Shown one piece after another: positions 28,783 to 30,699 of a stretch of DNA of 64,000 nt. Source of the DNA: Candidatus Hodarchaeota archaeon (GTDB lineage Archaea > Asgardarchaeota > Heimdallarchaeia > Hodarchaeales > Hodarchaeaceae); contig JAEOTC010000038.1 of the NCBI GenBank assembly GCA_016840035.1, positions 32,001 to 96,000 on the forward strand, in the 5' to 3' direction. The notes below the pieces were generated by a model that was given only the letters and a program-made list of their open reading frames with translations, ran no database searches and was not told the DNA's origin. A program made the translations under genes and the position numbers. Position 1 is the stretch's first letter. Each line of letters opens with the position of its first letter.

Positions 28783-29694
28783 CTACCGACGTATTTTTGT
28801 CATCAGGTAGTCAACTATTTTTTCAGCGACATTAATATTGGGATTCGCTATTTCAAACGCTTTCCACCCAGGACAGGCATTTACTTCAAGAACATACATC
28901 CCATTTGGTGTAGGAAATAGGTCGATTCCAGCCACTTCAATCTTTATTCTTTCGACTATTTGATGAACTAATTCTTCATCTTCCGTTGATAATGTATATG
29001 CTTCACAATTTGCTCCAAGGGCAAAATTTGTTCTCCATTCTCCTGTTAAAGCAGTTCGTTTCATACTCCCAATTATTTCGTTTCCTATGGAAAATACTCG
29101 TATATCGGCGGAGGGGGGAGCTTTATGCGGAGGCCCAGTTTGAAGATATTCTTGAATCATAATTGGTTCAGAGGATCGCATGAACAATGATTCAATTATT
29201 TCCTCAGCAGCTTTTGAATTGTAAGCCAACAGTGTTCCACTTCCCTGTGTTGCATCAGGTAGTTTGATTACCAATGGGAATTTGAAAGCTTTTAACAGTT
29301 GGTCTATCTGGAATGCGTTATTTATCAAGATCGTTTTTGGCAATTGGACCCCTTTAATCTTTGAGATGGTTTGATAGCACCGAAATTTATCCCGAGAAAG
29401 GAATAGCGCTTCTGCGGAGAGAGTACTTGGTATATCCATCAGTTCGAAGTGCTTCAGGCATAATACACCTAAATTTGTTTGTGATCTGCCTATACGTGGA
29501 ATAACCCCCAAAAGAGGGTGTAGTGATTGGTTTGCGAACCTAGCATCAGCTCCAGTAGAGCTAATTAGGGGAAAAACATATTGTGTAGAAAGGAAAACAC
29601 CAGAAACATCGTTTCTTTTATTTATGTCCTTTAGTAATTCGGTTGTCGGGAAATAATCCTTATTTCGACTTAGGACACCTATTTGTCTTGCCAG
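28783..29694 (-). CDS. RimK/LysX-family ATP-grasp ligase
   Basis: IPRIG, QGSG, IQEY, DIRV, EWRTNFALG, LEVNACPGW; frame stays open to a CTG at 29694 just downstream of AGGAGG, restoring the RimK-type N-terminus IGVLSRN. Confidence 0.85.
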   Translation of the reverse strand: MARQIGVLSRNKDYFPTTELLKDINKRNDVSGVFLSTQYVFPLISSTGADARFANQSLHPLLGVIPRIGRSQTNLGVLCLKHFELMDIPSTLSAEALFLSRDKFRCYQTISKIKGVQLPKTILINNAFQIDQLLKAFKFPLVIKLPDATQGSGTLLAYNSKAAEEIIESLFMRSSEPIMIQEYLQTGPPHKAPPSADIRVFSIGNEIIGSMKRTALTGEWRTNFALGANCEAYTLSTEDEELVHQIVERIKIEVAGIDLFPTPNGMYVLEVNACPGWKAFEIANPNINVAEKIVDYLMTKIRR

Positions 29695-29713
29695 ACTTGA
29701 ATGCCTCCTTAGA

Positions 29714-29821
29714 TAGCCCCGCTCAGATTCGAACTGAGGTCAGAGAGAATTTCCACATAGCTTATACCGAATAAACTGATGTCATAGAACTCTCTATGAT
29801 GGACCACTACACTACGGGGCT
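29714..29821 (-). tRNA. tRNA with Gln-type body (A1-U72) and 35-nt BHB intron (29749-29783); predicted mature anticodon CUA
   Basis: AGCCCCG/CGGGGCT acceptor, D arm GTGT-AGTGGTCCA-TCAT, GAGAG/CTCTC anticodon stem, CTCAG-TTCGAAT-CTGAG T arm, bulge-helix-bulge at 37/38; tRNA fold is certain, amino-acid identity is not. Confidence 0.9.
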
Positions 29822-29825
29822 GAAA

Positions 29826-30029
29826 TTAACGAATTGGGCTTGAAAAAGTCAGAATATCGTCAATAAGTTCCACGTGTGTTATTAACATCCTTCTGCAGCA
29901 GTATCGTTTCAATTCAAAAGAATCGAGTAACTCTGATGCTTCTTTACCTGCTTTCAAACCATCTAAAAAATCATCATAATACTGAGCAATAACTTTACCG
30001 CAGGTATAACATCGGATTGGAATCATCAT
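29826..30029 (-). CDS. rpoN: DNA-directed RNA polymerase subunit N (Rpo10)
   Basis: MIPIRCYTCGK...RYCCRRML. Confidence 0.97.
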   Translation of the reverse strand: MMIPIRCYTCGKVIAQYYDDFLDGLKAGKEASELLDSFELKRYCCRRMLITHVELIDDILTFSSPIR

Positions 30030-30045
30030 GGTTATTGATCACCCT

Positions 30046-30699
30046 TTAGAATCCATCATCACTCATGGGACGGCGGCCGCGTGGAGCTCTAAACAATTCT
30101 ACTCGCATTTGAGCATCTTTCTCGGGTGTTAATTCTCCACGTTCACGGAGTATCTCCTTAGTTAATAACCAAAAGATCATTGCTAATGAATTGCGTCCTT
30201 TGTTGTTGCATGGAATTGCTAGATCGATATTCTTTATTGTATTATCAGTATCGACCAACGATATCACTGGTATTCCCATTCGATATGCTTCTTTAAGCGC
30301 TTGATGATCAAAATGAGGATCAGTGATCAAAATGCTTGTTGGTTCAACGAAATTATAGCGTCCTTTAATATTTGGATTTGTAAAAATTCCTGGAATGAAT
30401 CTTCCAGTAATCGGAACGGCACCGGTCACTTTGCAGAACATTTCTACAGGATAAATTCCGTACGCTCTAACGCTGCATGCTGCTACTCGTGACATATCTT
30501 GACGAGCAAGGAATTTTGCTGCTGTACGGATTCGATCATCAGTTTTATGGACATCTAATACATATAGACCATCACTTCGTGTCCGATAAATTGCCCAATC
30601 CATGCTTTTCATTCCGCTGGAGGTTCCTATATGGACACCAGCCTTCAGATAATCTTCTAGAGGGGTGAGCAACTCTTCTTCTTGTGTAGGGGTTGTCAT
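30046..30699 (-). CDS. rps2: 30S ribosomal protein S2 (uS2)
   Basis: YLKAGVHIG, GRFIPGIFTNP, DTDN, IPCNNKG. Confidence 0.97.
   Translation of the reverse strand: MTTPTQEEELLTPLEDYLKAGVHIGTSSGMKSMDWAIYRTRSDGLYVLDVHKTDDRIRTAAKFLARQDMSRVAACSVRAYGIYPVEMFCKVTGAVPITGRFIPGIFTNPNIKGRYNFVEPTSILITDPHFDHQALKEAYRMGIPVISLVDTDNTIKNIDLAIPCNNKGRNSLAMIFWLLTKEILRERGELTPEKDAQMRVELFRAPRGRRPMSDDGF

Follow-up and report, generated by a model that had tools for sequence, protein, structure and literature searches.

What becomes of a tRNA that keeps the body of a glutamine tRNA and acquires an anticodon complementary to a stop codon, in a genome where this codon still terminates genes? The question is raised by a gene lying on the minus strand, at positions 29714–29821 of the 64,000-nt stretch of Hodarchaeales DNA analysed here (the window, to which all coordinates refer unless a contig is named). 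The window is part of contig C184 of G000, a metagenome-assembled genome (MAG) of 4.30 Mb, 36% GC and 87% completeness. The gene is a descendant of the archaeal-type (“type-1”) tRNA-Gln(CUG) sited after rpoN throughout a genus of Hodarchaeales, and is not a reader of glutamine codons. Together with the anticodon CUA, it carries a uridine at position 37. We tentatively read it as an attenuated amber suppressor, giving this reading a little less than an even chance. In theory, a stop codon begins to be captured when the anticodon of a spare tRNA gene comes to match it at a time when it is still read by the release factor, and natural examples frozen at this stage are rare.

Structure of the tRNA Gene and of Its Intron

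ARAGORN in its intron mode predicts one tRNA at this position, giving it the anticodon CTA and placing an intron of 35 nt after position 37; this call is supported by the fold and by the syntenic orthologues described below. The precursor is 108 nt long and yields a spliced tRNA of 73 nt, CCA not being encoded. The gene is missed by ARAGORN run without introns and by Rfam, both at the gathering threshold and in E-value mode on positions 29600–29950. The intron accounts for these failures, which are no evidence against the gene.

The 5′ exon (29784–29821, minus strand, 38 nt) comprises the acceptor strand AGCCCCG, a D arm with GG, the anticodon-stem strand GAGAG and the loop positions U32 U33 C34 U35 A36 U37. 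The anticodon CUA occupies 29785–29787 (minus strand; it appears as TAG on the plus strand), and U37 lies at 29784, where the CUG orthologues have G. The intron (29749–29783, minus strand) is inserted at the canonical 37/38 site and is followed by the 3′ exon (29714–29748, minus strand, 35 nt), made of U38, the anticodon-stem strand CUCUC, a 4-nt variable loop, the T arm CUCAG/UUCGAAU/CUGAG, the acceptor strand CGGGGCU and A73. The spliced loop thus reads U32 U33 C34 U35 A36 U37 U38.

The splice site has the bulge–helix–bulge (BHB) shape that is canonical in archaea. A 4-bp central helix UUCU/GGAA, the 3′ strand of which (GGAA) belongs to the intron, is flanked by the 3-nt bulges AUg and auU; an outer helix ACAU/AUGU comes next, and then the inner hairpin AGUUUAU/AUAAGCU. 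The folded precursor has an energy of −37.1 kcal/mol (z = −3.56), which none of 200 shuffled sequences equalled. The cloverleaf and BHB drawn in a preliminary description of this DNA are exact in sequence, in fold and in the ARAGORN model, and so is its spliced anticodon CUA with U37, which the alignment of orthologues also gives.

The body of the molecule bears the marks of an archaeal tRNA-Gln of the indirect-pathway type, namely A1–U72 (within AGCCCCG/CGGGGCU), A73, the D-loop GG and the UUCGAAU T loop. The anticodon loop departs from this type, which has a YUG anticodon followed by a purine 37. A purine is indeed usual at this position, as the preliminary description had stated: A or G is found in every intron-less tRNA that ARAGORN calls in G000. 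The gene therefore combines what a nonsense suppressor has, a stop-complementary anticodon on an otherwise intact tRNA, with a residue 37 that is not the purine of a favourable suppressor extended anticodon.

Orthologues with CUA and CUG Anticodons

A DNA search was made in 60 relatives and the loci were read, one further locus (in G010) being added later. Full-length matches are confined to the genus. At the syntenic gene, the loop UUCUAU (CUA, U37) is found in G000, G020, G004, G014, G002 (the 2017 MAG B3_Heim) and G005, the loop YUCUGG (CUG, G37) in G019, G001, G021, G003, G012, G008, G016, G009, G015 and G013, and the loop CCCUGG (CUG, C33) in G010. One metagenome contig with the same CUA tRNA, 94% identical to the G005 locus, came from a pattern scan of public collections. 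The combination of CUA and U37 is thus common to six species and one independent metagenome contig, UUCUAU being invariant in all seven sequences. The preliminary description had left room for an assembly error or a private mutation, which orthologues reading CTG-GA would have exposed; the orthologues showed the opposite.

The gene order (ESCRT-II, S2, RpoN, tRNA, RimK-like, RadA) is the same in the 16 loci compared, 10 of which carry the CUG form; the eleventh CUG orthologue, that of G010, was read without its flanks. The body proposed earlier to be of the glutamine type is therefore that of the tRNA-Gln(CUG) occupying the same place in 11 other species. The mature G000 tRNA differs from the tRNA-Gln(CUG) of G019 at only 5 of 73 positions, and two substitutions, G36 to A and G37 to U, yield the spliced loop UUCUAUN and the anticodon CUA. 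In the G005 lineage the first pair is A1–C72 instead of A1–U72, a change also seen in the CUG-type genome G013.

A different deviation is present in the closed genome G010 (C1:3963582–3963689, locus L101), where a tRNA-Gln(CUG) with an otherwise conserved body has the loop CCCUGGA, C33 replacing the near-universal U33. This suggests that the function of the anticodon loop has been relaxed or altered more generally in this gene.

Selection on the Gene

Eighteen orthologous sequences could be aligned in register. The anticodon stem is paired in all 90 cells of this alignment, the BHB central helix in 64 of 72 and the outer helix in 57 of 72. Thirteen different 5′ strands occur in the outer helix, which forms on average 3.17 pairs with its own partner and 2.28 with a foreign one. 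In G004, the anticodon-stem pair G27–C43 has become A27–U43. Within the core clade (G000, G020, G004, G014 and G002), the mature sequences differ at 0–4 of 73 positions (94.5–100% identity) while the introns are 60–89% identical, and the RimK-like proteins encoded next to the tRNA are 80–83% identical to that of G000. The gap between exons and introns, together with the compensatory stem pair, points to purifying selection. The G000 copy has no stem mismatch and its conservation is not relaxed, unlike what is expected of a tRNA pseudogene. Moreover, the CUA tRNA does not differ from the decoding CUG orthologues in T arm, D loop or acceptor, and there is no sign that it has lost its fitness for the elongation factor or the ribosome. 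The CUA tRNA thus appears to be a functional and selectively maintained gene.

The same alignment bears on the possibility that a sense anticodon is restored, by editing or by alternative splicing, to give a normal tRNA-Gln(CUG). The glutamine-type body would fit, and position 36, were it converted to inosine, would pair with C. Against this, covarying helices fix the splice register, which does not differ from that of the CUG orthologues, and no alternative BHB giving YUG is visible in the 42 nt between the strands of the anticodon stem. Such a restoration is also unneeded, since G000 has separate tRNA-Gln(CUG) and tRNA-Gln(UUG) genes, and we know of no editing described at tRNA position 36. 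An edited or unusually spliced tRNA-Gln, one of the options offered in the preliminary description, is therefore very improbable.

Two Lineages of CUA Genomes

A tree of the flanking proteins, concatenated into 852 columns, groups the five core genomes with support 100/100 and places G005 apart from them with the CUG-bearing G019, again with support 100/100. A single clade of CUA genomes, and hence a single origin of this kind, is rejected by the approximately unbiased (AU) test (p = 0.0016), and the grouping of G005 with G019 is also found in the aRF1 tree. The tRNAs themselves tell the same: that of G005 has the D loop, anticodon stem and intron core of its G019 counterpart and differs from it only at positions 36, 37, 38 and 72. 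Since the CUA genomes are split in this way, G36A and G37U must have arisen twice, or have reverted once, in G019.

A Second Glutamine System and the Charging Route

G000 encodes a glutaminyl-tRNA synthetase (GlnRS) on contig C69 (65401–66975; TIGR00440, 691 bits for a cut-off of 426). The gene is part of a cassette outside the window (C69:65401–67821, locus L041), in which tandem tRNA-Gln(UUG) and tRNA-Gln(CUG) genes lie about 600 nt from the GlnRS gene. Both have G73, A37 and an encoded CCA, and the UUG gene has an intron in its D loop. The preliminary description had called for a check of other tRNA-Gln genes, and this pair is the answer. The cassette is found in CUA-type and CUG-type genomes of the genus alike, and within the class GlnRS scores above the cut-off in 34 of 61 genomes. 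In the CUA genomes the GlnRS-linked pair covers the glutamine codons, so that the old CUG gene was redundant, which probably left it free to change.

The old-type system appears reduced in the CUA genomes. In each of them the old-type body has a single match, namely the CUA gene. An old-type UUG gene is present besides in many CUG genomes, but the DNA search of relatives found none in any CUA genome. In G019, an old-type tRNA-Gln(UUG) with an intron (C153:3148–3259, locus L099) has two acceptor mismatches, its D-loop GG has become AG with the loss of G18, and ARAGORN makes no call. This copy looks like a pseudogene and gives an idea of what neutral decay resembles in this group.

Could the CUA gene be a relic of the same kind, a redundant tRNA-Gln gene already degenerating, whose anticodon changes are merely the first neutral substitutions? 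Its redundancy with the GlnRS-linked pair, the failure to find the old-type UUG gene in the CUA genomes and its decayed look in G019 would agree with this view, as would the A1–C72 pair of the G005 lineage and the lack of any decoding footprint described below. A1–C72 is not a mark of decay, however, because it is shared with the CUG-type G013. The exons of five species have remained nearly identical while their introns, and to a lesser extent the neighbouring proteins, have diverged; a stem change has been compensated, and the same two substitutions are found in two lineages. Decay is thus an unlikely explanation, although a less remote one than the restoration of a sense anticodon.

The ancestral charging route seems to have been kept along with the body. 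An intact gatE–gatD operon is present in all six CUA genomes (gatE is cut by a contig end in G004), and an archaeal glutamyl-tRNA synthetase (GluRS) in G002, G014 and G020. Archaeal GatDE recognises A1–U72 and the D loop of its tRNA, and not the anticodon.

Two forms of GatE coexist in the genus (G000 C111:13301–16484, locus L043; G019 contigs C2 and C9, loci L097 and L098). The first scores 530–578 bits and has a GatB_Yqey tail; the second scores 333–357 bits, has no Yqey match and is 34% identical to the first. In G006, as in the CUA genomes, only the second form was found; both operons occur in G019. The catalytic part of this second form, which is annotated in Hodarchaeales as an ordinary GatE, shares about 50% identity with GatE of other Heimdallarchaeia. 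A divergent GatE as a specific partner of the CUA tRNA could be ruled out, since this form also occurs in G006 and G019.

UAG as a Stop Codon

TAG ends 667 of the 3008 stop-to-stop open reading frames (ORFs) of at least 150 codons in G000 (22%), and beyond a TAG the frame stays open for the same short distance as beyond TAA or TGA. That TAG is a genuine stop, as had been said for the window, thus holds genome-wide. Its share of terminators is 22.2% in G000, 22.2% in G002 and 25.3% in G005, all with CUA, and 17.6% in G010, 18.0% in G019 and 19.9% in G021, all with CUG. TAG is not depleted in the CUA genomes: the pooled difference (Fisher p = 0.02, the genomes not being independent) goes in the direction opposite to that expected from toxicity. 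The release factor tells the same, with aRF1 motifs TATNIRS and YVCDNRF identical in both groups of genomes. An adaptation of the release factor was rejected, no CUA-specific substitution being found in the aligned aRF1 N domain.

A CUA anticodon on a well-formed tRNA might also be taken for the sign of a genome-wide code change, of a pyrrolysine-type system or of an assembly artefact. The artefact is countered by the same loop in seven independent assemblies. For pyrrolysine, the best PylS_Cterm match in G000 reaches 27.9 bits for a cut-off of 178; besides this lack of PylS, the G18G19-type D loop, the standard loops and the orthology with tRNA-Gln(CUG) exclude a tRNA-Pyl, as the preliminary description had concluded, for a typical pylT, from the tRNA alone. 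Within the sensitivity of the tests, genome-wide recoding of TAG is likewise ruled out by the share of TAG terminators, the short extensions, the lack of recoded islands and the unchanged aRF1. The signs by which a reassignment is usually recognised (conserved in-frame TAG, TAG-depleted terminators, an altered release factor) are all lacking. These three explanations can be practically discounted.

A few particularities of aRF1 were noted along the way. NIRS replaces NIKS throughout the genus (aRF1 loci L073–L096); an additional and highly divergent aRF1 paralogue, in G008, has NIKS. The aRF1 N-terminus of the core clade lacks an ATG at the position where relatives have theirs. In G000 (aRF1 at C233:7394–8614 and C125:1–711), a second, partial aRF1 lies at a contig end beside a second tRNA-Gly(UCC), which probably reflects strain heterogeneity or a duplicated contig.

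Possible Weak Suppression or a Role Away from Decoding

How could a CUA tRNA be maintained in cells that still terminate at UAG? In the reading that we tentatively favour, the precursor would be excised from an S2–rpoN–tRNA–rimK transcript and spliced by the BHB endonuclease. The tRNA would then be charged as its ancestor was: with glutamate, by a non-discriminating GluRS that would already accept C or G at position 36, after which GatDE, reading A1–U72 and the D loop and not the anticodon, would amidate the glutamate to glutamine. UAG would finally be read weakly, in competition with aRF1. Pyrimidine 37 is expected to stack poorly on the weak A36–U pair, so that the suppressor would be attenuated and could be tolerated while UAG is a normal terminator. 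Such a state would correspond to the ambiguous-intermediate stage of stop-codon capture, and not to a changed code. The expression, excision, splicing and charging of the CUA tRNA are all predicted steps. The broader proposal, a natural glutamine-inserting attenuated amber suppressor of Hodarchaeales, evolved twice through the redundancy of GlnRS and its tRNA-Gln pair and forming a living UAG-to-Gln ambiguous intermediate, is a possibility that we would put forward with more reserve. Less likely variants are a tRNA used for the programmed read-through of a few genes, or one that carries a residue other than glutamine.

Weak suppression is favoured by the conservation of the gene, by the double change in two lineages, by the redundancy of the old gene and by the presence of a charging route; the ordinary share of TAG terminators and the unchanged aRF1 motifs speak for a weak rather than a strong reading of UAG. 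Several observations weigh against weak suppression. The residue that would attenuate the tRNA is double-edged: changes at position 37 are known from extended-anticodon work to lower suppressor efficiency strongly, and U37 may abolish decoding altogether rather than merely weaken it. No archaeal-type GluRS was found in the 87%-complete G000 MAG, in which TIGR00463 matched only the GlnRS gene; because relatives have one, the 13% of the genome absent from the assembly probably contains it. The occurrence of CUA in two lineages does not discriminate either, because, of the anticodons one step away from CUG at position 36, CUA alone reads no other sense codon; convergence to it is also expected for a tRNA that has merely been disarmed from CAG decoding.

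The remaining points concern the footprint that reading of UAG might leave. Long frames bridged by a single kind of stop are fewest for TAG in G000 (22, for 38 with TGA and 70 with TAA). Ten TAG-bridged long frames proved to be adjacent separate genes, and no Pfam domain spans the TAG. Paralogue alignments across in-frame stops are equally few for the three codons (TAG 6, TGA 7, TAA 6). A tblastn comparison of 858 ORFs from three CUG-type relatives with G000 gave 698 alignments (223,270 residues), which contain 50 in-frame TGA, 45 TAA and 15 TAG, mostly in antisense or upstream stretches. Conserved in-frame TAG aligned to glutamine, which the preliminary description had proposed to look for, was not convincingly found in any of these 698 alignments. 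The turnover of stop codons between orthologues is symmetric (26 vs 35), and back-up stops after TAG are enriched at one window size only in G000, and not in the other CUA genomes. Taken as a whole, these genomic proxies, with no decoding footprint, are compatible with weak UAG suppression or with none.

The same silence is what would be expected of a disarmed, non-decoding tRNA kept for another role, in which CUA and U37 would serve to end competition at CAG codons. We regard this as the main rival, to be held as tentatively as the broader proposal above. The unchanged aRF1 agrees with it, and so does the choice of the anticodon: CUA causes no missense, and U37, a pyrimidine that occurs at this position in none of the intron-less tRNAs predicted in G000, would cripple any residual reading. 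A third lineage, that of G010, has kept CUG and altered position 33 on the same conserved body. The role itself might be that of a processing signal for RNase P and tRNase Z between rpoN and the rimK-like gene, or that of a partner of GluRS, GatDE or another tRNA-dependent enzyme. In the core clade, indeed, only 4 nt separate the tRNA from the rpoN stop and 19 nt, containing AAGGAGG, from the rimK-like start, so that its excision would shape both mRNAs. However, the acceptor and T arms would suffice for a processing signal, and yet the D arm, anticodon stem, BHB intron and UUCUAU loop are conserved as well. Drift of the loop would be expected if decoding were irrelevant, and yet it is identical in two lineages. 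As for a partner enzyme, no candidate confined to the CUA genomes was found; G006 and G019 also have the divergent GatE.

Comparison with Known Stop-Reading tRNAs

The closest likeness is with supE-type suppressors (glnV44/supE of Escherichia coli and the SUP70 type of yeast), in which a redundant tRNA-Gln(CUG) also mutates from G36 to A while other genes continue to read CAG and UAG is still a stop. These are laboratory or strain-level mutants with a purine 37 and measurable suppression, whereas the Hodarchaeales tRNA is found in six species and two lineages, has U37 and a BHB intron, and is predicted to be charged by the indirect GluRS/GatDE route and not by GlnRS, its suppression being likewise a prediction. 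The tRNA-Gln(CUA) and (UUA) of ciliates and other eukaryotes, and those of TAG-recoded phages (code 15-like), also derive a stop reader from tRNA-Gln, which is the commonest capture route. In these systems TAG occurs often within genes and seldom or never ends them, and the release factor, or the use made of it, has changed; the genomes analysed here show none of these features. The CUA tRNA does resemble the first step of a ciliate-type reassignment of UAG to glutamine.

The tRNA-Pyl (pylT) of methanogens and some Asgard lineages is, similarly, an archaeal CUA tRNA in cells where UAG also stops. It has a short D loop without G18G19 and an anticodon stem of 6 bp. The present tRNA has the D-loop GG, a UUCGAAU T loop, a 5-bp anticodon stem, A1–U72 and orthology with tRNA-Gln(CUG), and no PylS accompanies it. 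With the cell-wall tRNA-Gly of Staphylococcus, it would share the condition of a redundant isoacceptor under selection, possibly away from decoding. In such non-proteinogenic tRNAs, T-stem and D-loop changes weaken the binding of the elongation factor, whereas in Hodarchaeales only the anticodon loop differs from the decoding orthologues.

The tRNA thus departs from known suppressors in being fixed across species and lineages, in its U37, in being archaeal and intron-bearing, and in its background of two parallel glutamine tRNA systems. The literature searched contains no published description of a CUA tRNA-Gln in Hodarchaeales, nor of a natural archaeal case of a spare stop-reading tRNA with the release factor still active. 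According to a 2024 preprint, no alternative code had been established for Archaea before the code it describes, in which all TAG are read as pyrrolysine.

Within one genus, the successive fates of redundant tRNAs can be seen side by side: two parallel glutamine systems, one old isoacceptor lost or decaying, and the other converted to CUA and U37 in two lineages. Hodarchaeales is an Asgard archaeal order often placed closest to eukaryotes; if suppression is real, it would follow the same UAG-to-Gln route that has been taken repeatedly in eukaryotic nuclear codes. If the tRNA is charged through GluRS and GatDE, it could offer a natural basis from which to build an orthogonal amber pair. There is also a consequence for annotation, since tools that label the gene tRNA-Pyl or “Sup”, or miss it, could falsely suggest pyrrolysine use or a recoded genome in Hodarchaeales.

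Operon Context and Neighbouring Genes

The core-operon setting given in the preliminary description (rps2–rpoN–tRNA–rimK-like) is borne out by Pfam, the row around the tRNA being ESCRT-III/Vps4/ESCRT-II, S2, RpoN, tRNA, RimK-like and RadA. The rpoN gene, which encodes RNA polymerase subunit N (29826–30029, minus strand; PF01194, E = 1.2e-26), ends with TAA 4 nt upstream of the 5′ end of the tRNA, for which reason the two are probably co-transcribed. The gene for ribosomal protein S2 lies further upstream in the same operon-like row (30046–30699, minus strand; PF00318, and synteny in 16 loci).

Directly downstream of the tRNA is the RimK-like ATP-grasp gene (28783–29694, minus strand; PF08443, translation and comparison of N-termini), which ends in TAG. 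It has about 304 codons, and not the 242 of the ORF listing, the frame being open from the tRNA onwards. In G000 the start is CTG (29694–29692, minus strand), which aligns with ATG in G020 and G004 and with GTG in G002 and G014; the AAGGAGG motif mentioned above lies in the 19 nt that separate it from the 3′ end of the tRNA. In the translation check no in-frame TAG was found between the tRNA and the called start, the frame there being simply open.

The stop codon of the RimK-like gene (28783–28785; loci L002–L017) is TAG in all six CUA genomes and in none of nine CUG genomes, which have TAA or TGA. Past this TAG, the in-frame extension shows no conservation at the protein level, and the codon abuts, in the core clade, a conserved promoter-like AGAGAAAACCTAATATA upstream of radA. 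On these two grounds the RimK-like TAG was rejected as a read-through target, and its correlation with CUA is probably a coincidence or the effect of a promoter constraint.

Elsewhere in G000, at C71:6372–6508, ARAGORN in its intron mode calls a candidate tRNA-SeC(TCA) with a 48-nt intron.

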